Below are positions 7,541 through 52,959 of a stretch of DNA of 64,000 bases, piece by piece (position 1 is the first letter of the stretch; each line of letters starts with the position of its first letter). The stretch comes from Patescibacteria group bacterium. GTDB lineage: Bacteria; Patescibacteriota; Minisyncoccia; UBA6257; 02-FULL-45-10c. Made by a program: the position numbers and the translations under genes. Under the pieces are notes generated by a model. The model was not told where the DNA came from. It saw only the letters and a list, made by a program, of their open reading frames with translations, and ran no database searches. Location: contig JAGWYA010000002.1 in assembly GCA_018969615.1 (NCBI GenBank), positions 3,070-67,069 of the forward strand, read 5' to 3'.

Positions 7541-7578
7541 AGACCCCATGCACAACGTGTGTATGGGGTCTTTTTTTA
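7541..7578 (+). terminator. Rho-independent terminator (agaccccat ...13 nt... atggggtct + TTTTTTT)
   Basis: Perfect 9-bp stem followed by a 7-T run just after the stop codon at 7533-7535. Confidence 0.75.
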
Positions 7579-7599
7579 TTTTTGTATCATGTATTTCTT

Positions 7600-8000
7600 A
7601 AAAAACAAAAGTGTATTTTTTGGAGCATAAGAACCCGAGGATCTAAAAATACACTTTTGTTGCAACTTTAGGCTTATTCCCGCCTACTGCCCACTGCCTA
7701 CGCGCTACTCCCTACTTGGCGAATGGATTCAGAACCCATTTGCGAAATAGTTTCTAGGCGCGTTGCGAGGAAAAATGGAATAGCTCAAGAAGCAACGACG
7801 AGATCGCAGCATGAGCTGCCTCGAGGAGGAGCAACGAAGGGCTATTCCATTTTAACCGCAACCCACAGGGATAGGGTCAATTTTATTTATACCTTCGTTA
7901 CTCGTCAGAAAGGTAGCTACAGCTACGATTTCTTCCTCGCGCCTTACTCTAAATAAAATTGACCACTATCGCGCCAGTAATCTATTTCGCAAATGGGTTC
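7600..8000. repeat. About 400-nt non-coding region with four nested/serial inverted repeats; candidate structured RNA or decayed element
   Basis: Inverted repeats: caaaagtgtatttttt (7606-7621) / aaaaatacacttttg (7645-7659); aaaatggaatagc (7773-7785) / gctattccatttt (7840-7852); gtcaattttattta (7875-7890) / taaataaaattgac (7953-7966); outer pair gaacccatttgcgaaatag (7734-7752) / ctatttcgcaaatgggttc (7982-8000). The last pair overlaps the final codons of the M23 peptidase gene. Confidence 0.5.
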
Positions 8001-8980
8001 TTGGCCCCATAAACTTCAAAATGCAAATTACATCCCGAAGGCCCGTCATTCTGGCCCGTATCTCCCGTCAGCGCGATCTCCTTTCCTTTCGCCACATAAT
8101 CACCGACCGACACTAAGTTCTTTGAGGTATGCGCATACCGGGTCTTGGTGCCGTTCGGATGGTCGATCAAAATATAATTCCCGTATCCTCCGTTCCATCC
8201 CGAACCAACCACTTCAACGACCAATCCTTCGGCGGCCGCATACACCGGCGTACCGCATGCGTTCGTGATATCAACGGCATTATAGGAATACAACCGCCCG
8301 CCGTTCCAACCCGTCGTCGGGATCGAGAAATATCCAGGCAGGCTCGGCAGGCCGGAAAGCGACGCATAGTTCGTCGATCGCACCGGCCGCCCTCCCGGGA
8401 TGATCAGCGATGACGCGGTCGCGATCTGCGAAGGCACGAAGCCGGGGTTCGCATGAAGGATGCTTTGCACGGAAACATCGTACAGAGCGGCAATGCTGTC
8501 CAGTGTTTCACCGTCCTGTATCTGATGAAGCACGCCGTTCACCGGCAAGATCGTCAACTGCTGTCCCGGACGCAGCACTGACCAGTTAACACCCGTGTTC
8601 GCCCAGATCAATGTGTTCAATGAAATACCGAAGTTCGCCGCAATGATCGATGCCGAGTCGCCGGACTGGACCGTATAAAGCAATACGCCGCCGCGCGTCG
8701 GCACGACGTTGCTCAGCGGATTATCGCTGTTCAACAGCGCCGCACCGCCGACCACGTTCATCGGCGCATCAGTATTGACCGCGATCGCCGCCTCGCTGTC
8801 GATCGGACTTCCCGAATAGAGCGCCGCAGTGTCAGCGCTCAATGCGGCATCAACGGACAGCGGCTGCCCCGAAAGATAGAGCTGCGCCTTCAACGCCTGG
8901 TACCCGCCCGGCGCCGCAAAGATATATTGAGAGACCACAAAGTTCCCGATCGCCATGACCGCAATGAACACGACCGTCAT
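7982..8980 (-). CDS. LysM-domain / M23 family metallopeptidase (cell-wall endopeptidase), membrane-anchored
   Basis: N-terminal TM (MTVVFIAVMAIGNFVV); two LysM-like repeats (YTVQSGDSASIIAANFGISLNTLIWAN; HQIQDGETLDSIAALYDVSVQSILHAN); M23 motifs GGYGNYILIDH and HLHFEV. The ORF track extends to 9289, but that 5' extension overlaps uvrD; the start is placed at ATG 8980 (alternative 8956). Confidence 0.75.
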   Translation of the reverse strand: MTVVFIAVMAIGNFVVSQYIFAAPGGYQALKAQLYLSGQPLSVDAALSADTAALYSGSPIDSEAAIAVNTDAPMNVVGGAALLNSDNPLSNVVPTRGGVLLYTVQSGDSASIIAANFGISLNTLIWANTGVNWSVLRPGQQLTILPVNGVLHQIQDGETLDSIAALYDVSVQSILHANPGFVPSQIATASSLIIPGGRPVRSTNYASLSGLPSLPGYFSIPTTGWNGGRLYSYNAVDITNACGTPVYAAAEGLVVEVVGSGWNGGYGNYILIDHPNGTKTRYAHTSKNLVSVGDYVAKGKEIALTGDTGQNDGPSGCNLHFEVYGAKNPFAK

Positions 8981-9098: not shown

Positions 9099-10955
9099 AT
9101 GCCACAGCGCTCCCATCCTTCACCGCTCAATACAACCCAGGAACAAGCGGTCCGCCATTCCGGAGGACCGCTTTTGATCGCCGCCGGCGCCGGATCGGGA
9201 AAAACGAAAACGCTTACGAGCCGGCTTTTGCATCTTTTGGAGACCGGCGTCGCTCCGCAGGCGATCATTGCGATCACGTTCACCAACAAAGCCGCGAAAG
9301 AAATGAGGTCGAGAATAACGAATAATGAATTAGGAATAACGAACGGGGCGACTGATGAAAAAAAGAGCGGCGTAATTCATAATTCGAAATTCATACTTCC
9401 ATTTATAGGAACGTTCCACGCGCTCGGCGTCCGCATCCTGAAAGAAGAAGCGCACTGGGTGGGACGCACATCACACTTCACGATCTTCGACGACGAGGAT
9501 AGCGCGAGCCTGATCAAATCGATCCTGAAAGAACTGCAGCTCTCCAAGGACCGCTTCAGTCCGTACGCCGTCATCGGCCAGATCTCACGGATCAAGAATG
9601 AATTGATCAATGTCGATGAGTACGCGGACGAAGGCCGCTATGAACACACGATCGCGACCGTCTACCGGAAATATAATGAAACACTCCTGCACAGCAACGC
9701 GTTCGATTTTGACGATCTCATCGAGAAGGTCGTCCGCATCTTCCTTGAGCATCCCGAAGTGCTCGCCAAATACCGCGCCCGCTGGCAGTATGTTCTCGTC
9801 GATGAGTTCCAGGACGTGAACACGAACCAGTACCTGTTCGTAAAACTGCTCGCCCAGGAGCACAAGAACATCTTCGTGATCGGCGACGACGCGCAAAGCA
9901 TCTATGCGTTCCGCGGTTCCGATTTCCGGAACTTCCTCAATTTCGAAAAGGACTGGCCGGATGCGAAGGTGATCCTGCTGACCGAGAACTACCGTTCCAC
10001 GAAAAATATCATCAACGCCGCCTCGGCGCTCATCAAACATAATTCGTTCCAAAAGCCGAAGGATCTCTGGACCAGCAACCCGGAAGGGGAGCTGATCAAC
10101 GTTATGGCGTTCCAGAACGCCGAGGAGGAAGCGGTCTCGGTCGCCCAGCGGGTCCGCGAAGCGCTCGGCGGCGGCGAATCTCCGAAAGAGATCGCGGTCC
10201 TGTACCGTACGAACGCGCAATCCCGCGCGCTCGAGCAATCGCTCATCAGGAACAACATTCCGTACGAGATCTACGGCGGGCTGAAGTTCTATGCCCGCAA
10301 GGAGATCAAGGACATTGTCTCCGCGATCCGGTACGCGTTCAATCCGAAGGACCGCTCCGCGATCGACCGCATCACGAAAACGTTCAATAAAGGCCCGCGC
10401 ATCGCGCTTCTGGAAGCGCTTCCGCGTCTTGCCGAAGAAAGGCTGTCGCTCGTTGAACTGATCCAATATTTCCTTGAAGAGACCCGCTACACCGAATTCC
10501 TCGCCCTTCATTTCAAAAATCCCGATGAACGCCTTGAGAACATCAAAGAACTGATCCAATTTGCCGCGAGCTTCAACGATCCGCATGATTTCATCGAGCA
10601 GGTGACGCTGTTATCCTCGCTCGACGGCCGGCCGAAACTGCAGGAGAACGCGGTGAAACTGATGACGATCCATCTGTCCAAGGGCCTTGAGTTCGACCGC
10701 GTCTTCATCGTCGGCGCGAACGAAGGACTGCTTCCGCATGAACGCTCAATGATAAAGAACGATGACCTCGAAGAAGAGCGGCGCCTGATGTATGTCGCCA
10801 TAACCCGCGCCCGGAAACATCTCACGATCAGCTTTTATGATCTGCCGTCGCGGTTCCTCGGCGAACTGCCGCCGGAACTCATCGCATTCACGAAAGTCAG
10901 CAGTTACGGCGCCGAAACCCGCGACTGGGATGATGAAACGATATACTTAGAATAA
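9099..10955 (+). CDS. uvrD: UvrD/PcrA-type superfamily-1 DNA helicase carrying an in-frame AT-rich insertion between motifs Ia and Ib
   Basis: N-terminus PLNTTQEQAV...LIAAGAGSGKTKTLTSR (Walker A); motifs TFTNKAAKEM, GTFHALGVRIL, VLVDEFQDVN, VIGDDAQSIYAFRG, YRS, VTLLSSLDGRPK...LMTIHLSKGLEFDRVFIVG. The ORF track starts at GTG 9072; ATG 9099 matches the canonical N-terminus. Confidence 0.85.
   Translation: MPQRSHPSPLNTTQEQAVRHSGGPLLIAAGAGSGKTKTLTSRLLHLLETGVAPQAIIAITFTNKAAKEMRSRITNNELGITNGATDEKKSGVIHNSKFILPFIGTFHALGVRILKEEAHWVGRTSHFTIFDDEDSASLIKSILKELQLSKDRFSPYAVIGQISRIKNELINVDEYADEGRYEHTIATVYRKYNETLLHSNAFDFDDLIEKVVRIFLEHPEVLAKYRARWQYVLVDEFQDVNTNQYLFVKLLAQEHKNIFVIGDDAQSIYAFRGSDFRNFLNFEKDWPDAKVILLTENYRSTKNIINAASALIKHNSFQKPKDLWTSNPEGELINVMAFQNAEEEAVSVAQRVREALGGGESPKEIAVLYRTNAQSRALEQSLIRNNIPYEIYGGLKFYARKEIKDIVSAIRYAFNPKDRSAIDRITKTFNKGPRIALLEALPRLAEERLSLVELIQYFLEETRYTEFLALHFKNPDERLENIKELIQFAASFNDPHDFIEQVTLLSSLDGRPKLQENAVKLMTIHLSKGLEFDRVFIVGANEGLLPHERSMIKNDDLEEERRLMYVAITRARKHLTISFYDLPSRFLGELPPELIAFTKVSSYGAETRDWDDETIYLE
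9311..9396 (+). mobile_element. Roughly 87-nt AT-rich MITE-like insertion inside uvrD, in frame (encodes about TNNELGITNGATDEKKSGVIHNSKFILPF); the ends are homologous to the ends of the 10946-11365 cassette
   Basis: Left end gagaataacgaataatgaattaggaataacgaac matches ttagaataaggaagtatgaataaggaatcaggg at 10946. Right end ggcgtaattcataattcgaaattcatac matches ggccgtaattcctaattcgaaattcatg at 11331 (15-nt exact core taattcgaaattcat). Left and right ends are imperfect inverted repeats of each other (acgaataatgaattagg vs reverse complement tcgaattatgaattacg). Confidence 0.5.
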
Positions 10956-11365
10956 GGAAGTATGAATAAGGAATCAGGGAAAATAAGAAACTTTCAGGAC
11001 CTCGATGCATGGAGAGAAGGGCATCTCTTGGTTTTAGAGACCTATAAGGTCACAAAAAAATTCCCCAGGGAAGAAATTTTTGGATTGATAAGTCAGATGC
11101 GGCGGTGCGCGGTATCAATTACTTCTAATATTGCTGAAGGATTCAGTAGGCAGTCCTACAAAGAAAAGTTGCAATTTTATTCAATATCGCAAGGATCGGT
11201 CACTGAACTCCAAAATCAACTGCTTATATCAAAAGATGTGGGCTATATGGACGAAAGTGAATTTCAAAAAATTTCCGAACAGTCGATAAAAGTACATAAG
11301 ATCATAAACGGCCTGATCAGGCATTCTAAGGCCGTAATTCCTAATTCCTAATTCGAAATTCATGA
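10946..11365 (+). mobile_element. About 420-bp AT-rich cassette with imperfect terminal inverted repeats (gaat[a/t]aggaa-type) carrying a four-helix-bundle protein gene; it exactly fills the uvrD-rsmA intergenic space
   Basis: Base composition is visibly lower in GC than both neighbours. The left end contains the uvrD stop codon and the right end abuts the rsmA ATG. Homologous miniature copies lie at 9311-9396 and 37253-37340. Confidence 0.5.
10962..11351 (+). CDS. Four-helix-bundle protein (23S rRNA intervening-sequence protein family / Avd-like, PF05635/TIGR02436-like)
   Basis: 129 aa. SD aaggaag then ATG. Sequence (FQDLDAWREGHLLVLETYKVTKKFPREEIFGLISQMRRCAVSITSNIAEGFSRQSYKEKLQFYSISQGSVTELQNQLLIS) matches the conserved core of this family as I recall it. 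The gene is AT-rich relative to the genome. Confidence 0.7.
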   Translation: MNKESGKIRNFQDLDAWREGHLLVLETYKVTKKFPREEIFGLISQMRRCAVSITSNIAEGFSRQSYKEKLQFYSISQGSVTELQNQLLISKDVGYMDESEFQKISEQSIKVHKIINGLIRHSKAVIPNS

Positions 11366-21128: not shown

Positions 21129-21877
21129 TGACGATCATGAGAACTCATACTAAAACCGGATCATTCGCCGCCCATCATCGACTGGCATGGTTTTCGGCTA
21201 TTTTACTGCCTACTGCCTACTGCCTCCTTGCTCTGACAGCAAACGCACAAACCGCTCCCGAGTTCATGGTTAGTTGGAAGGCCCTCGACTATGTTCCTGC
21301 GGACTATATCGGAAAAACATTGCCGACTCAAACGACGCAAGTCGAAGCGGCATTTGATGTGATCGATCAAGGAAAGATCGTCGATGTTTCAAAGAATATG
21401 ATAAATTGGTATGACAACAATGCCCTTATCGCCGCAGGGATAGGATTAAAGACGTTCAAGTTAACCCCCAGCAGCACGCAAAGCGACACCATCCGGATTG
21501 CGGTCTCGAATTATAATGCCAATGGGGATATCTCCACCTCATTTTTGGTCCCGATCGTGAAGCCTGAAGTGGCTGTCAGCGTACCGACACCGACCGCAAA
21601 TCTTTATCGGAACCGCACCGCTCTTGCACCTCAGCCCTATCTCCTTGAAGCCCGGCCTTTCTTTTTCAATGCGACCTCACTCTCCGGACTTACATTCTCT
21701 TGGCAGGTAAACAATACATCACCAACAGGGAATCCGGGAAATCCCAATTTTCTAACGCTTGATCTCTCTTCTCAAGGAACCCCTCAAGAAACCGATATTA
21801 CGCTTTCAGCCGGAGTGACTAATACCGGTAACCAACTCGAACTTGGCAGTCGCATGCTTAATCTTATCGTACAATAA
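21128..21877 (+). CDS. Secreted hypothetical protein; the signal-peptide coding region contains a (TACTGCC)x3 heptanucleotide repeat
   Basis: 249 aa; start overlaps the previous stop (taATG); signal peptide AILLPTAYCLLALTANAQT; heptamer tandem repeat at 21205-21228. Confidence 0.5.
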   Translation: MTIMRTHTKTGSFAAHHRLAWFSAILLPTAYCLLALTANAQTAPEFMVSWKALDYVPADYIGKTLPTQTTQVEAAFDVIDQGKIVDVSKNMINWYDNNALIAAGIGLKTFKLTPSSTQSDTIRIAVSNYNANGDISTSFLVPIVKPEVAVSVPTPTANLYRNRTALAPQPYLLEARPFFFNATSLSGLTFSWQVNNTSPTGNPGNPNFLTLDLSSQGTPQETDITLSAGVTNTGNQLELGSRMLNLIVQ

Positions 21878-34820: not shown

Positions 34821-34832
34821 CTTTAAAATAAA

Positions 34833-34995
34833 AATAGAAGGCTTTGTTCTGTGGGCAAATATCCCGTCAGGGAAAAAGTGGAACTTTCCTAAAATAAATT
34901 TTAGAAAAGGTTAGAATTATTCTGAGGAGTGGCCTCGCCTGAGCCAAGCCATCCGTCTAGAAGTAATTCCCGCCCACAGAACAAAACCTTCTATT
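34833..34995. repeat. About 163-nt non-coding element bounded by a 24-bp inverted repeat (1 mismatch): aatagaaggctttgttctgtgggc ... gcccacagaacaaaaccttctatt
   Basis: Inverted repeat read directly from the sequence. The interior contains the palindrome ctaaaataaattttag; the element sits between pilB and ruvB. Confidence 0.5.
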
Positions 34996-35062
34996 TATCG
35001 GAGAACACCTGCATTGGATTGATAATAATATAGCATAAATAAATACTATTGTCAATACCCTT

Positions 35063-36760: not shown

Positions 36761-37276
36761 ATGCGCAGTTCATCGATCCATATGACCCGGCGCTTCGCGG
36801 CCCGGCTGGCAAGGCGGATCCTGAAAAAGGGACCGTTGCGTTCCGGTGCGACGATCGTCGCGCTCCGGGGAGATCTTGGCGCGGGAAAGACGACGTTCAC
36901 TCAGGGGTTCGTGAAAGCGCTCGGCGTGAAGGGGCGGGTGACGAGTCCGACCTTTTTGCTGATGCGGCGGTATGCGCTAAAGAGTCGAAAGTCCCGCCAA
37001 AGGCGAGGCTCCCGCTTCGCAGCGAGGCGAGCGCCAAAGGCGGCAAAGGTCAAAGGTCACATGTTTAAAAATGTCTACCATTTCGACCTCTATCGCATCC
37101 AGCGGGCAAGCGATCTGCAGGCGCTTGAGTTCAATAAGATCATTGCGGAACCGGCGAATATCGTGCTGATCGAATGGCCGGAGCGACTGGGAAAAAAGAA
37201 GCATGCGCATACGGTTCATTTCAAGCACGGAAAAAATGAAAAAGAGCGTGAGATTAGAATTAAGAATACTGAATAG
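36761..37276 (+). CDS. tsaE: tRNA threonylcarbamoyladenosine biosynthesis protein TsaE, with an in-frame insertion of about 25 aa of basic low-complexity sequence
   Basis: P-loop GDLGAGKTTFTQG; SPTFLLMRRY and YHFDLYRI motifs. Between them lies SRKSRQRRGSRFAARRAPKAAKVKGHMF, encoded by GC-rich direct repeats (ccaaaggcg x2, caaaggtca x2). The 3' end and stop codon lie in the AT-rich repeat at 37253-37340. Confidence 0.75.
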   Translation: MRSSSIHMTRRFAARLARRILKKGPLRSGATIVALRGDLGAGKTTFTQGFVKALGVKGRVTSPTFLLMRRYALKSRKSRQRRGSRFAARRAPKAAKVKGHMFKNVYHFDLYRIQRASDLQALEFNKIIAEPANIVLIEWPERLGKKKHAHTVHFKHGKNEKEREIRIKNTE

Positions 37277-37340
37277 TGAATCAGGAACAGGTCCGGTAAT
37301 GCCAGCTTCCTTATTCGCAATTCATGCTTCATAATTCATT
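37253..37340 (+). mobile_element. Roughly 88-nt AT-rich MITE-like copy of the cassette ends (gene-less), between tsaE and the polA 5'-3' exonuclease ORF
   Basis: Left end ttagaattaagaatactgaatagtgaatcaggaa matches ttagaataaggaagtatgaataaggaatcaggga at 10946 (26/34 identical). Right end ggtccggtaatgcc...ttccttattcgcaattcatgcttcataattcatta matches ggccgtaattcctaattcgaaattcatg at 11331. Confidence 0.45.
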
Positions 37341-37344
37341 ATAT

Positions 37345-38211
37345 ATGCGTAAATTCCTTCTCATTGATGCGAACTCATTGATCCACCGGTCGTTCCATGC
37401 GCTGCCGCCGCTGACGACGCCGAAAGGCGAGCCGATCAACGCGGTCTACGGGCTTTCCTCGATCCTGTTGAAATTGATCAAAGACCATCAGCCGGATTAT
37501 GTCGCGGCCGCCTTTGACCGCCCGGAAGCGACTTTCCGCAAAGTGATGTATCAGGAATATAAAGCGCATCGGCCGCCGACCGCGAGCGAGCTGGTATCCC
37601 AGCTGGTGGAGGCGCACCGCACGTTCGAAAAGTTCGGCATTCCGGTCATTGAAAAAGCGGGGCTGGAGGCTGATGATATTGTCGGAACGCTGGCGGAGCA
37701 GATGAAAAAAGAGCCCGATGTGAAAGTGGTTATTTTTTCCGGCGATAAAGATAATCTGCAGCTGATCGACGGCGACCGGGTCGTGGTGGAGCTGTTGAAG
37801 ACCGGCGTGAGCAAGACCGTGACCTATAATGAACCGTTGTTTTTGCAGGAATACGGATTCTCGCCGAAGCAGCTGATCGATTTCAAGGCGCTGATTGGCG
37901 ATACCTCGGATAATATTCCCGGCGTGACCGGCATCGGGCCGAAAGGGGCGACCGATCTGATCCGCGAATACGGAAGCATTGAGAAGATCTATGAGGAGGT
38001 GGGATTGATCGCGAAAGAATCGCTCCGGAAAAAATTGGAAGCGGGGCGGGAGAGCGCGCTCCTTTCCAAGACGCTCGCCACGATCAAGCGCGACGCGGAT
38101 CTGGGCGTTTCACTCGCTGATTTCAGCCAGCATCCGCTGGACCGGGACGGGTTGAGAAAATATTTCGAAGAGCTTGGATTCCGCAGCCTGGTGGAGCGGA
38201 TGTCATCATGA
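37345..38211 (+). CDS. polA: DNA polymerase I 5'-3' exonuclease (FEN-like) domain encoded as a separate ORF
   Basis: MRKFLLIDANSLIHRSFHAL start; conserved Asp clusters (AFDRPEATFR, GLEADDIVGTLA, FSGDKD); H3TH region GIGPKGATDLI. The stop TGA (38209-38211) overlaps the ATG of the next ORF (ATGA). Confidence 0.85.
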   Translation: MRKFLLIDANSLIHRSFHALPPLTTPKGEPINAVYGLSSILLKLIKDHQPDYVAAAFDRPEATFRKVMYQEYKAHRPPTASELVSQLVEAHRTFEKFGIPVIEKAGLEADDIVGTLAEQMKKEPDVKVVIFSGDKDNLQLIDGDRVVVELLKTGVSKTVTYNEPLFLQEYGFSPKQLIDFKALIGDTSDNIPGVTGIGPKGATDLIREYGSIEKIYEEVGLIAKESLRKKLEAGRESALLSKTLATIKRDADLGVSLADFSQHPLDRDGLRKYFEELGFRSLVERMSS

Positions 38212-39659
38212 CCGATTTCGATCTGAAAGAAAAATTTAAAACATTGCGCCGGGAGGGCGCGGCGCTGCCGAAAACCTTTTGCGACCTCGGTGTCGCATTT
38301 TGGCTTTTGAATCCCGACGAGGCGAAGCATGAGCCTGAATATTTGAGCGAACGCTATTTGCATACGAAAAGCATTTCGAAAAAAGCATTGGCGGCATATG
38401 CGGAGAAGAGGCTGAAGGAATATAAGCTTGAAGCTTTGTTCCGCGACGTCGAGCTTCCGCTGATCCCTATCCTTGCGGAGATGGAGCTGAGGGGCATTGC
38501 CGTGGACCGGAAAGCGCTCCAGGCGCTGGACGCTGAACTGGGGAAAAAGATCACGGCGCTCGCAAAGGATATCTACCGCACTGCCGGAGGGCCGTTCAAT
38601 ATCAATTCGCCGAAACAGCTGGGGCAGATCCTTTTTGAAAAATTAGCGATCAGCGGAGAGGGGGTCAAAAAGACCAAGGGCGGTGCCGTCTCCACGAACA
38701 TTGATACGCTGATGACGATCAAGGAGCGGCATCCGATCGTGAAGTACATTCTTGAATATCGCGAGTTGTTTAAATTGCAGTCGACGTACGTGAAGCCGCT
38801 CCAGGAACTGGCGGATACGAACGGCCGCGTGCACACGACCTATCTCCAGACCGGAACTTCGACGGGGCGGCTCAGCTCGCAGAACCCGAATCTGCAGAAC
38901 ATCCCTACAGGCGGCGAGTGGGCAAATCGCGTACGAAGCGTCTTTGTCCCTGAGAAAGGGTACGCATTCGTTTCGTTTGATTATTCGCAGATCGAACTGC
39001 GCGTGCTTGCATCGTTATGCGGCGATCCGCAGATGATCAAGGCGTTCACTGAAGGCGCCGACATTCACCGGCTGACCGCGGCAAACGTGTTCAATGTGCC
39101 GATCGCGAACGTGACGCCGGAGATGCGGCGTTTGGCAAAGACCCTGAACTTCGGCGTCGTGTACGGCATGGGGGCGCAGGCGTTCGCGAAAACGAGCGGG
39201 CTGAGCTTTACCGAAGCCAAGAAATTCATCGATGAATATTTCCATGATTTCGCCCAAGTGAAGACCTGGCAGGAAGAGATCAAGGCTTTTGCGCGGACGC
39301 ATGGGTATGTCGTGAACCGGAACGGCCGCCGGCGGCTGCTTTTGCACGCGACCTCGATGTTCCGCGGCGAGGCGGCGGAAGCGGAGCGTGCGGCGATCAA
39401 TATGCCGGTCCAGGGATTGGCGGCGGATATCGTGAAGATCGCCATGGTGAACGTCGCAGCCGAGATCCGCAGGCGAAAATGGGATGATGCGGTGCGGATG
39501 CTGCTGACGATCCACGATGAATTGTTGTTCGAGGTCAGGAAGGATATACTAAAAGAAGCGATCGGCGTCATTCAGCCGATCATGGAGCGTGCGTATACGC
39601 TTGAAGTGCCGTTGACCGTCAATGTAAAGACGGGAACGACCTGGGGTGACCTCGCGTGA
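38208..39659 (+). CDS. polA: DNA polymerase I polymerase (family A palm/fingers) domain; no 3'-5' exonuclease domain evident
   Basis: 483 aa; motif A (VSFDYSQIELRVLA), motif B (RRLAKTLNFGVVYGMGAQAFA), motif C (IHDELLFEV). Confidence 0.85.
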   Translation: MTDFDLKEKFKTLRREGAALPKTFCDLGVAFWLLNPDEAKHEPEYLSERYLHTKSISKKALAAYAEKRLKEYKLEALFRDVELPLIPILAEMELRGIAVDRKALQALDAELGKKITALAKDIYRTAGGPFNINSPKQLGQILFEKLAISGEGVKKTKGGAVSTNIDTLMTIKERHPIVKYILEYRELFKLQSTYVKPLQELADTNGRVHTTYLQTGTSTGRLSSQNPNLQNIPTGGEWANRVRSVFVPEKGYAFVSFDYSQIELRVLASLCGDPQMIKAFTEGADIHRLTAANVFNVPIANVTPEMRRLAKTLNFGVVYGMGAQAFAKTSGLSFTEAKKFIDEYFHDFAQVKTWQEEIKAFARTHGYVVNRNGRRRLLLHATSMFRGEAAEAERAAINMPVQGLAADIVKIAMVNVAAEIRRRKWDDAVRMLLTIHDELLFEVRKDILKEAIGVIQPIMERAYTLEVPLTVNVKTGTTWGDLA

Positions 39660-42777: not shown

Positions 42778-42802
42778 ACATCGTTTGAATTATTTTGCGC
42801 GA

Positions 42803-42863
42803 GAAAGCGCCAGTCCCTTTTTCAGTAACGGGTTCTTACACTGAAAAAGGGACTGGCGCTTTC
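42803..42863. repeat. Perfect 24-bp-stem hairpin (gaaagcgccagtccctttttcagt / actgaaaaagggactggcgctttc, 13-nt loop)
   Basis: Inverted repeat read directly from the sequence, 26 nt after the holA stop; it may serve as the holA terminator, although the stem is far longer than typical terminators. Confidence 0.55.
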
Positions 42864-42891
42864 TTCGTATTGCGTATTTTATATAAAAATA

Positions 42892-52155: not shown

Positions 52156-52227
52156 GTCCCCGTGGTTCAATGGATAGAACGTAGCCCTCCGAAGGCTGAG
52201 ATCGAGGTTCGATTCCTCGCGGGGACA
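52156..52227 (+). tRNA. tRNA-Arg (anticodon CCG); CCA not encoded
   Basis: 7-bp acceptor stem GTCCCCG/CGGGGAC; D-stem GTTC/GAAC; anticodon stem-loop with loop CTCCGAA (U33, anticodon CCG, A37); T-stem CGAGG/CCTCG with loop TTCGATT; discriminator A. Confidence 0.8.
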
Positions 52228-52363
52228 CAAAGGAAAACAAAGCCTCTTTCGCGCAGTACTGGGTTCTTATACTGCTTCAAAGAGGTTTTGTTTTTAGGAT
52301 AGTAAAAAGAAAAACCTGCTATGACACGTCATAGCAGGTGTATTTATTTTGGAGATGCGCAGG

Positions 52364-52672
52364 CTATTTTTTCTTGAAGATGAAATCCTTTCGGCGAAAG
52401 CCGCGGCTTATAAAATAAGCAAGATGTTCTTCAAGTTCTGAGGCGATTGAGGGATAGAGTAGCTCGAGTTGATCGATGTCGCATCGTTTTGCCCAGGCGG
52501 CGACCGCATTTTTAAGGAGGTCTTCGCTGTAAGCGCAAATGCCGCATGCTCCGCATACGAAATAAGGAGCATGAAACGCGACAAAGGAATACCCTCTTAA
52601 AAGAAGCTCGTTTTTTTCGGGAACTTTTCCGCAAGAAGGGCAGTAAAAATCATCAGACGACAACTCGCTCAT
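52364..52672 (-). CDS. YgiT-type zinc-finger (MqsA N-domain-like) protein, 102 aa
   Basis: YCPSCG...LRGYSFVAFHAPYFVCGACGICAYSE matches the YgiT/MqsA zinc-ribbon pattern. Terminator cctgctatgacacgtcatagcagg (52313-52336) on the minus strand. Confidence 0.5.
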   Translation of the reverse strand: MSELSSDDFYCPSCGKVPEKNELLLRGYSFVAFHAPYFVCGACGICAYSEDLLKNAVAAWAKRCDIDQLELLYPSIASELEEHLAYFISRGFRRKDFIFKKK

Positions 52673-52959
52673 GAGATCTCCATTTTAAAAAAACTACCAA
52701 CAGGATAGCTTAATTAGAGATCCTCTTGCAATGAGAATACTTAATTTTGCGGCGATCACCGATAATTAGCCCCACTATAATGTGTCATAGCAGGGTATTC
52801 TTTTTCCTCAAGCGAGGAAGTATTTCTGGTTGTTTTTTCATCGTAAGACCCCGGTGATGAAAAAAATAACCCGAAATGTTCTGAGTGTATTTTTCCTTGA
52901 ATTAGCGAATATATTCAGCTACCCTGAGTGTAGTTTCTTGGTACAAGGAAGAGAGAAAA

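Follow-up and report, generated by a model that had tools for sequence, protein, structure and literature searches.

A short hairpin built of seven-nucleotide units was found between the genes tsaE and polA in a 64,000-nucleotide stretch of contig JAGWYA010000002.1 (assembly GCA_018969615.1) from a Patescibacteria group bacterium; the whole 64-kb stretch is referred to below as the window. The hairpin (37257-37341, ~85 bases) was composed of five GAANNNN heptads, a loop of 15-19 nucleotides (nt) and five TTCNNNN heptads, and it was imperfect. By its heptad architecture it is related to a family of cassettes in which a gene for a 23S rRNA intervening sequence (IVS) protein, termed IVP here, is enclosed by two complementary heptad arms. 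Such cassettes and hairpins lie in the sense orientation within operons, their arms supply stop and start codons to neighbouring genes, and the tsaE-polA junction has been used by them recurrently. The copy in the window is an insertion. It was concluded that the hairpin probably represents an insertion allele of an IVS-like, heptad-armed cassette, which is devoid of an open reading frame (ORF) and has likely been deleted internally.

Architecture of the hairpin and its sister copies in the window

Positions 37250-37347 read GAGATTA GAATTAA GAATACT GAATAGT GAATCAG GAA-caggtccggtaatgccagc-TTCCTTA TTCGCAA TTCATGC TTCATAA TTCAT-tatat-ATG, where GAGATTA (37250-37256) may be a degenerate unit ahead of the left arm. 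The right arm was an imperfect reverse complement of the left one (24/34). The RNA fold of the hairpin was predicted at -25.0 kcal/mol (z = -3.4 against dinucleotide shuffles) and that of the opposite strand at -23.9 kcal/mol (z = -2.9). The predicted helix of ~31 bp was broken about every 4 bp, and the A+T-rich stem was followed by TATATATG. The promoter and terminator scan returned no intrinsic terminator at 37250-37345 and no promoter signal at the hairpin; since a T-run was missing, the hairpin is not an intrinsic terminator. The search of the whole window against Rfam 15 at the gathering score yielded no match at the hairpin. The sole match was one tRNA, hence no rRNA gene was detected in the window. 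An independent assembly represented by a 1-kb contig (L156) was identical over 37200-37400, and an assembly artefact is thereby excluded. Only this identical contig was reached with the shorter annotated TsaE (P0001), and exact-sequence searches with the long form of TsaE, the PolA polymerase and IVP gave no hit.

Runs of at least four GAA or TTC triplets at a period of 7 nt were searched for in the window. Six were recorded, and they formed exactly three left/right pairs, namely 9313-9347 with 9376-9403, 10950-10977 with 11338-11365, and 37257-37291 with 37307-37341. In 200 first-order Markov simulations of the window, such runs numbered 0.015 on average and never more than 1. A gene was enclosed by one pair out of three, the other two (2/3) being gene-less.

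The gene-bearing copy, located at the uvrD-rsmA junction, was used as the reference cassette. Its left arm holds the uvrD stop codon TAA (10953-10955) and the IVP start codon (ATG 10962), and its right arm holds the IVP stop codon together with the rsmA ATG (11362). The encoded protein of 129 aa was a full-length match to PF05635, '23S rRNA-intervening sequence protein' (E = 1e-37), and was also assigned to TIGR02436, 'four helix bundle protein'. The closest solved structure was XCC0516 (PDB 2GSC, five chains in the entry), a homologue described as a homopentamer (PMC4990558). The Avd profiles PF22296 bAvd (E = 2e-7) and NF033474 (E = 1e-4) were both matched below their cut-offs. No other IVP homologue was detected by tblastn, either in the window besides 10962-11351 or in 63 polA-anchored loci. 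The second gene-less copy lies inside uvrD/pcrA, between the motifs TFTNKAA..EMR and GTFH, exactly where the lengths of UvrD orthologues vary. At the same site, P0139 and P0144 had no insert, and other repeat-like inserts were present in, e.g., P0121 and P0125, with 'TIDNGQLTIDNKK...'.

A preceding sequence-only reading had proposed a gene-less copy of the cassette ends between tsaE and the polA exonuclease gene, and this was borne out, the strings it quoted being found in place. The reported similarity of the left ends (37254-37287 against 10947-10980, ungapped) was reproduced at 26/34 and was the best match in the window on either strand. Next came the uvrD-internal copy and the reverse complement of the hairpin's own right arm, both with 24/34; the background of all 34-mers against the cassette left end had a mean of 8.2 (standard deviation 2.5), and no more than 23/34 was attained when the cassette end was shuffled 20,000 times with its dinucleotides preserved (P < 5e-5). 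The right ends agreed in 22/33 positions (P = 2e-4); the specific pairing of 'ggtccggtaatgcc' with 'ggccgtaattcc' required two indels and was suggestive only. An artefact of AT-rich, low-complexity composition, which had been named as the possible refutation, was ruled out by the shuffles (P < 5e-5 on the left and 2e-4 on the right) and by the heptad runs (6 against 0.015). The similarity of the ends to the cassette is really a 7-nt periodicity. Beyond the earlier reading, it was established that the ends are inverted, mutually pairing heptad arrays, that the cassette gene encodes the PF05635 IVS protein, and that this gene is present in one copy only. One further, weak match (52556-52589, in agreement with the right arm's reverse complement at 25/33 positions) lay in ordinary coding sequence, had no partner and was dismissed as chance.

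The last codons of tsaE lie within the left arm, and the stop codon TAG (37274-37276) falls within its third heptad, in agreement with the earlier claim that the left end provides this stop. The native C-terminus of TsaE, as judged from the homologue alignment, was ..KER(I/E)I.I(K)*; the left arm terminates tsaE by two or three extra codons and TAG. On the other side, the ATG of the polA exonuclease gene (37345) was located 5 nt past the last TTCAT of the right arm. This ATG was taken as the conserved start because the orthologues begin with M(K/R)K(F/L)LLID. The ATG at 37324, chosen in the mechanical ORF listing, is inside the right arm and was rejected as the conserved start.

The cassette family and the same junction in relatives

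A metagenome scan with the IVP protein of the window gave 80 loci of 59-84% identity, and 75 non-redundant ones were used for the analysis of stems. At almost all 80 loci, the IVP gene had a heptad array in front of it, in which its ATG was embedded (GAATTATGAAT...), and a complementary array behind it. The N-terminus was MN.ESG.., and the codons of the right array gave the C-terminus ..IIHNS*. In the gene-bearing cassettes, two or three heptads of the left arm precede the IVP ATG, and the final five codons and the stop belong to the right arm. The arms mostly consisted of 4-5 heptads, and the median length of the best ungapped stem between the regions of the start and stop codons was 28 bp, with 24 Watson-Crick pairs, in the non-redundant set. 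The flanking genes were co-oriented with the cassette in 77 cases against 5 in the opposite orientation.

The degenerate heptads read GAATNAN in the left array, and those of the right array were complementary to it. The heptad sequence was locus-specific, yet matched between the two arms of one locus. Complementary arrays of other types were found as well (GTATTAC/GTAATAC, GGTATTT/AAATACC, GGAATGG/CCATTCC, CGAAATA/TATTTCG), and in such loci the complementarity was ~19-23 with the own partner and 7-10 with foreign partners. Positions 5 and 7 of the GAAT heptads paired in 62-64% of cases against 35% expected, an excess which derives partly from the choice of the best register. The tree of IVP proteins was star-like, with the non-GAAT loci mostly scattered and no clear sorting by heptad type, such as a recognition code between protein and repeat would predict. 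Outside the Patescibacteria, similar arrays flanked IVP genes on cyanobacterial and Bacteroidota plasmids, annotated as 'S23 ribosomal protein' or 'four helix bundle protein': GGGTGTA/TACACCC in Calothrix, GGGAGTA/TACTCCC in Nostoc, GGAGATA/TATCTCC in Picosynechococcus, where the gene is located between cmr2 and cmr3, and GGTTTAA/TTAAACC in Riemerella. The exception to the inverted arms was a Pseudanabaena plasmid (L158, NZ_CP112875.1, 46015-46856) with an IVP gene between cas6 and cas4, flanked by direct arrays of ~12 AAAAGCT units upstream and ~12 AAAAGCC units downstream. IVP genes scattered inside cas operons had been recorded, without explanation, in an earlier survey (PMC3936711).

The hairpin shares with this family the paired arrays of at least four complementary heptads (5+5 units, 24/34, -25 kcal/mol), the position at a gene junction, the co-orientation, and the arms which extend over the stop and start of the neighbours. 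Its interior of only 15-19 nt holds no PF05635 gene, and therefore it was filed as an ORF-less derivative rather than a full member.

Further, the tsaE-polA junction was compared among related genomes, as the sequence-only reading had suggested, and it was found empty, occupied by a full cassette or occupied by a gene-less hairpin. The closest relatives, L144 and L149, whose exonuclease protein was 92% identical, carried no heptads there. The tsaE stop and the polA ATG are separated by a 10-nt spacer in L144 and overlap by 4 nt (ATGA) in L149. Heptads were likewise missing in many more distant relatives, where the tsaE stop overlapped the polA ATG or lay within about 15 nt of it. Since the ATGA overlap of L149 recurs in the distant L003, L011 and L013, it was regarded as the ancestral, unoccupied state. 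The flanks of the differing segment were ~90-95% identical to L144 and L149 at the DNA level, on the left up to AAAGAGCGT and on the right from AAATTCC. As the closest relatives lack the hairpin, the copy in the window is an insertion allele and not an empty landing site. The latter had been offered as an alternative by the sequence-only reading and did not hold, given that it is the heptad-free state of L144, L149 and the many distant relatives that corresponds to the unoccupied site.

An ORF-less GAAT/ATTC hairpin in the same register as in the window was present at this junction in L151, L152 and L153. Locus L155, a near-sister of L151 on the exonuclease tree, was devoid of it with the gene order otherwise unchanged. 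A complete IVP cassette was located exactly at the junction in the more distant L117. Its tsaE stop, TGA, lies within the left-arm heptad GAATTATGA and overlaps the IVP ATG, and polA starts with a GTG in the right-arm heptad TTCGTGATTC. The junction is thus represented by a complete set of natural states: the empty site (L144, L149 and others), the full cassette (L117) and the gene-less hairpin (the window and L151-L153).

The origin and movement of rRNA intervening sequences have been an open question since about 1990, and to our knowledge, PF05635/TIGR02436, a very large protein family, has no known function. The rule of an IVP gene between complementary, locus-specific heptad arrays held at almost every locus examined and therefore makes the question of IVP and heptads testable, through binding of IVP to the arrays, cutting by RNase III, and the reading of heptamer 'microsatellites' as footprints. 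The single hairpin is a modest finding; it is the family rule together with the empty, full and relic series that makes the old question experimentally approachable.

Three other occupants of the junction were noted. Heptads TAGTAGT TAGTAAC TAGAATC TAG were present without a partner arm in L001 (2967-3000). A 109-nt spacer in L005 (2891-3000) was bounded by the inverted repeats cccgttagaaaattaa / ttaattttctaaacggg, an unrelated inverted repeat of 130 nt. Locus L154 carried a 260-nt structured element.

Origin of the hairpin and competing explanations

A solo or internally deleted cassette, one of the two readings proposed earlier, gained support from the common heptad architecture, the full cassette of L117 at the same junction, and the IVP-like termini of the hairpin. 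In the reading frame of IVP, the hairpin translates as (CTG) N S E S G T G P V M P A S L F A I H A S stop, and the IVP-type start context GAATTATGAAT appears in it as GAATACTGAAT. The ATG is retained in L151 and L153, with relics of 14 and 12 codons (MADLYSSLFLIHNS and MTGPLLFIIHAS, respectively). The gene-less hairpins that adjoin IVP genes in L065 and L082 retain GGAAAAA...AAACCC|TAATTC, similar to the 5' and 3' ends of the IVP gene. From these ends, internal deletion of the IVP interior appears the most likely origin of the hairpin, softly as this must be put.

It was proposed that the IVP interior would have been lost by deletion, with the heptad-encoded start context and C-terminal codons retained. 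The hairpin would then be co-transcribed with tsaE and polA and fold in the transcript, where it may be cut by RNase III, by analogy with rRNA IVS stems. The RNase III signature motif was absent from the window, which covers only part of the genome, so this result is uninformative. The spread of the hairpin allele between related genomes would probably proceed by homologous recombination rather than by transposition. The hairpin is tolerated because its arms preserve the stop and start codons of the neighbours, and it is probably near-neutral for the cell.

Several observations weighed against an internally deleted cassette inserted at this site. No homology of the loop to the IVP interior was detectable, and therefore the deletion origin rests on the heptad-encoded ends of ~10 and 15 nt. 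Moreover, the heptads rotate through three frames, hence an 'IIHNS-like' reading is easily obtained. Neither a target-site duplication nor any other transposition signature was visible at the boundaries in the alignments of occupied and empty sites, and no transposase, integrase or reverse transcriptase was recognised among the genes flanking sites 2 and 3, the only genes checked. Compensatory base changes were not found among the four junction hairpin alleles, whose consensus fold was weak (-4.5 kcal/mol). The coding-strand mismatches across the IVP loci were not enriched in G.U (35 against 53 of the A.C type), so that selection on an RNA helix gains no positive support; the view that such a helix had been demonstrated was given up on the same counts. 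In the GAAT family, pairing with the own partner exceeded that with foreign partners modestly (18.1 against 15.5). The presence of the hairpin was patchy on both the exonuclease and TsaE trees. Finally, codon 2 of the polA exonuclease gene (37348-37350) was CGT in all four hairpin alleles (the window, L151, L152 and L153) and AAA or similar in every hairpin-less allele examined. The patchy presence and the linked CGT are more compatible with a single old allele, transferred or lost through recombination, than with a new insertion in this genome.

In the window, the likeness to the other hairpin alleles ends directly after CGT, and the flanking sequence resembles L144. This is most simply explained by a hairpin haplotype of single origin with a tightly linked CGT, exchanged or lost among related lineages by homologous recombination. 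Alternatively, independent site-specific insertions could have brought ATGCGT, the codon being part of the inserted unit.

Apart from the cassette relic, it was considered whether the hairpin is a selected cis-acting RNA element of the tsaE-polA transcript (an RNase III site, an mRNA stabiliser or a translation uncoupler) which only shares the heptad building block with the IVP cassettes. The constant register and arm lengths in four lineages with TsaE only ~60-65% identical speak for it, as do the purine-rich arm being transcribed first in all gene-less copies seen, the fold z-score of -3.4, and the fact that rRNA IVS stems are genuine RNase III substrates (PMC4990558). However, the hairpin is missing from the two closest relatives and from L155 with the gene order otherwise unchanged. 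There was also neither covariation nor G.U bias, the helix is interrupted about every 4 bp, and the lack of a T-run and of an Rfam match leaves neither a terminator nor a known RNA family. We therefore regard this explanation as unlikely. An unoccupied attachment site, in which heptad hairpins preceded the IVP gene and the gene homed into their loops, appears improbable. It agrees with the IVSs at the tips of rRNA helices, where they replace the apical loops (helix 45, PMC4990558), and with the co-occurrence of gene-less hairpins and gene-bearing cassettes within genomes; however, the IVP start and the last codons with the stop lie inside the arms, and therefore the arms are part of the gene and not a pre-existing site. 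The heptad-free junctions of the close relatives and the IVP-like start context and C-terminal codons kept by the hairpin also contradict it.

Among the long simple repeats of many bacteria, those of seven nucleotides are the most frequent (PMC4679880), and many differing heptad arrays, some of them unpaired, were present in the relatives. Chance AT-rich, low-complexity sequence or a heptanucleotide microsatellite formed by replication slippage, unrelated to the cassette, was nevertheless judged very improbable against the shuffle tests (P < 5e-5 and 2e-4), the six runs where 0.015 were expected, the arrays forming inverted pairs at all three sites of the window, and the paired architecture around IVP genes in about 75 independent loci. 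A broader proposal is made tentatively and with considerable doubt. The heptad arrays might act in cis as the sites of a separate class of cassettes that spans phyla and has no transposase. The only gene of such a cassette would encode the Avd-like pentameric IVP, which would recognise the 4-5 heptads of each arm, perhaps with one subunit per heptad. The cassettes would insert at gene junctions and at the tips of hairpins, where their arms would replace the stop and start codons of the neighbours, and they would decay to gene-less hairpins, the present one included, and to in-frame peptide insertions. The agreement of the heptad number per arm (4-5) with the five subunits of the protein is no more than suggestive. 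Such a class, if true, would unite the rRNA IVSs, the cyanobacterial heptamers of the short tandemly repeated repetitive (STRR) type, the stray 'S23 ribosomal protein' genes of operons such as cas, and the heptads inserted in frame into genes of the candidate phyla radiation (CPR).

Known systems, neighbouring genes and other repeats

Comparable systems are the IVSs of 23S and 16S rRNA genes, which occur both with and without an S23p/IVP ORF (Leptospira, Coxiella, Salmonella and the rRNA insertions of CPR). Short ORF-less rRNA IVSs of about 100 nt exist, and IVSs replace the apical loops of rRNA helices. The hairpin resembles them in that its terminal inverted repeats form a long stem, and differs in its location between the protein-coding genes tsaE and polA, with a sister copy inside uvrD. 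Because these copies are outside rRNA genes, excision cannot rescue a functional RNA. The 23S IVS of Coxiella contains tandem GACAGAT heptamers in its stem, upstream of the S23p (IVP, PF05635) ORF, and is excised by RNase III (PMC4990558). The Coxiella stem is 28 bp and near-perfect, whereas that of the hairpin is much more interrupted. Insertions in CPR rRNA genes sometimes encode 23S_rRNA_IVP (PMC11270868). In the literature search, whose coverage was incomplete so that an earlier description is possible, nothing beyond the Coxiella observation linked heptad arrays to PF05635 genes; nor were heptamer elements at CPR gene junctions found there, within the same incomplete coverage.

Among palindromic inserts, miniature inverted-repeat transposable elements (MITEs) are similarly short, ORF-less and bounded by terminal inverted repeats, but the hairpin shows no visible target-site duplication, and its gene-bearing relative encodes only the four-helix-bundle protein of 129 aa and no transposase. 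The Correia elements of Neisseria belong to the co-transcribed MITEs that RNase III cleaves. They share with the hairpin the small size, the lack of an ORF, the inverted-repeat ends, the intergenic position in an operon and the hairpin in mRNA. In contrast, the hairpin has no TA-type target duplication, its arms are periodic heptads instead of unique inverted repeats, and its putative full-length partner encodes a four-helix-bundle protein; we know of no cognate transposase for the heptad-armed element. The Rickettsia palindromic elements are in-frame insertions in protein genes and are not known to have an associated gene. The uvrD copy and a heptad block in tsaE are comparable to them as tolerated in-frame insertions in essential genes, although the sequence family and the host phylum are different and the tsaE-polA copy is intergenic. 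The repetitive extragenic palindromic (REP) sequences with their bacterial interspersed mosaic elements, and the REPIN-RAYT systems of REP doublets and REP-associated tyrosine transposases, likewise combine short palindromes at gene ends in operons, many copies, and a gene-bearing element beside gene-less hairpins; IVP, however, is not a Y1 (IS200/IS605-like) transposase, and the repeats of the hairpin are periodic heptads; no RAYT was noticed, with no search aimed at one. By analogy, the hairpin copy would work like an ORF-less IVS or a palindromic insert of the Correia/REP type.

The heptanucleotide repeats of cyanobacteria and Beggiatoaceae (STRR; TAACTGA) are 7-nt tandem units directly upstream of start codons that occasionally overlap ORF ends (PMC4679880). 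Exactly such heptamer arrays flank the cyanobacterial IVP genes, but that literature treats direct repeats of unknown origin, with no link to PF05635 or to inverted pairing (PMC4679880). The cassette gene, as distinct from the hairpin, belongs to the same fold family as Avd of the diversity-generating retroelements by its sub-threshold scores; the scores were far under the Avd thresholds, and neither a reverse transcriptase nor a template/variable repeat was recognised beside the cassette. As for integron attC sites, the arms are by eye plain heptad arrays with no resemblance, and no search for attC core sites or IntI was made.

The positions of the hairpin, its parts and the surrounding features are listed in Table 1.

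Table 1. Positions of the hairpin, the related copies and the adjoining genes in the window
Feature	Position	Strand	Basis
Left arm, five GAA-phased heptads (GAATTAA GAATACT GAATAGT GAATCAG GAACAGG)	37257..37291	+	Heptad-run scan; lag-7 periodicity peak; 26/34 match to the cassette left end
Apical loop / relic interior, TCCGGTAATGCCAGC	37292..37306	+	RNA fold; variable part in the alignment with the L151, L152 and L153 hairpins
Right arm, five TTC-phased heptads (TTCCTTA TTCGCAA TTCATGC TTCATAA TTCATTA)	37307..37341	+	Heptad scan; RNA fold; arm alignment
Relic mini-ORF in the IVP frame, (CTG)-NSESGTGPVMPASLFAIHAS-TAA	37269..37334	+	Tail of mechanical ORF 37203..37334
Segment differing from L144	37250..37350	+	101 nt in the window against 31 nt, ATAATTAAAGTCTAAGCCTTTTTATATGAAA, in L144 (DNA alignment)
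Reference cassette, uvrD-rsmA junction	10950..11365	+	Left arm 10950-10977, IVP gene 10962-11351, right arm 11338-11365
Second gene-less copy, inside uvrD	9313..9403	+	Left arm 9313-9347, right arm 9376-9403; in-frame read-through as ..RITNNELGITNGATDEKKSGVIHNSKF..
tsaE ORF	36761..37276	+	PF02367, E = 1e-30; database homologue P0001 begins at Met 36782
polA 5'-3' exonuclease ORF	37345..38211	+	Pfam PF02739, PF01367; start set by orthologues

For annotation, the arms produce false starts, such as the ATG at 37324, and element-derived residues in TsaE and UvrD. The polA gene was split into the exonuclease ORF (37345-38211) and a polymerase ORF (38208-39659) with a 4-nt overlap, and additional small ORFs were present between the two in L151-L153.

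Within tsaE, an in-frame block of AAAGTCN-type heptads (36985-37062) was located between SPTF..RRY and YHFDLYR. At the same position in relatives (L001, L004, L005, L010, L144), the heptad sequence varied, for instance AAGTCCA x4 and ACCCTWA x4 in L004, AAAGTCA x4 in L005 and AACCTAT in L010; the left and right blocks inside tsaE were not complementary. The AAAGTCN heptads were also found within polA of L005 (4207-4241). The tsaE gene of the window had an additional GC-rich in-frame insert of 51 nt (17 residues, RQRRGSRFAARRAPKAA), which was lacking in L144.

Other heptads of the window were noted at 7682-7716 (GCCTACT GCCCACT GCCTACG CGCTACT CCCTACT), with no complementary array seen, and at 21199-21233 (ACTGCCT x3), in the signal-peptide region of an ORF and with no complementary partner array seen. 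The former lies just upstream of an element of ~280 nt (7725-8005) with 32-nt terminal inverted repeats (7731-7762 / 7970-8001) and a predicted fold of -118.9 kcal/mol (z = -9.4). This element was ~72-80% identical to the junction insert of L154 (copy at 1634-1856), with compensatory changes in 12/64 predicted pairs between the two copies, and partial copies were present in L144 (1672-1859) and L149 (1206-1379). Rfam gave no match for the region 7550-8100 even at E = 1. These features suggest a structured mobile element of RNA or DNA that has not been described before. A pair of 25-nt inverted repeats, 96% complementary and 115 nt apart (34832-34996), was located just upstream of ruvB, the position where L144 and L149 carry their partial copies of the 280-nt element.

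At 42802-42864, an inverted repeat of 25 nt, perfect in its pairing, enclosed a loop of 13 nt. Inverted repeats of 47 nt (52301-52347 / 52762-52808, 79% complementary) enclosed ~414 nt with a small cysteine-rich ORF on the minus strand and adjoined the only tRNA of the window (52156-52227); the region 52301-52808 may be another small cassette.

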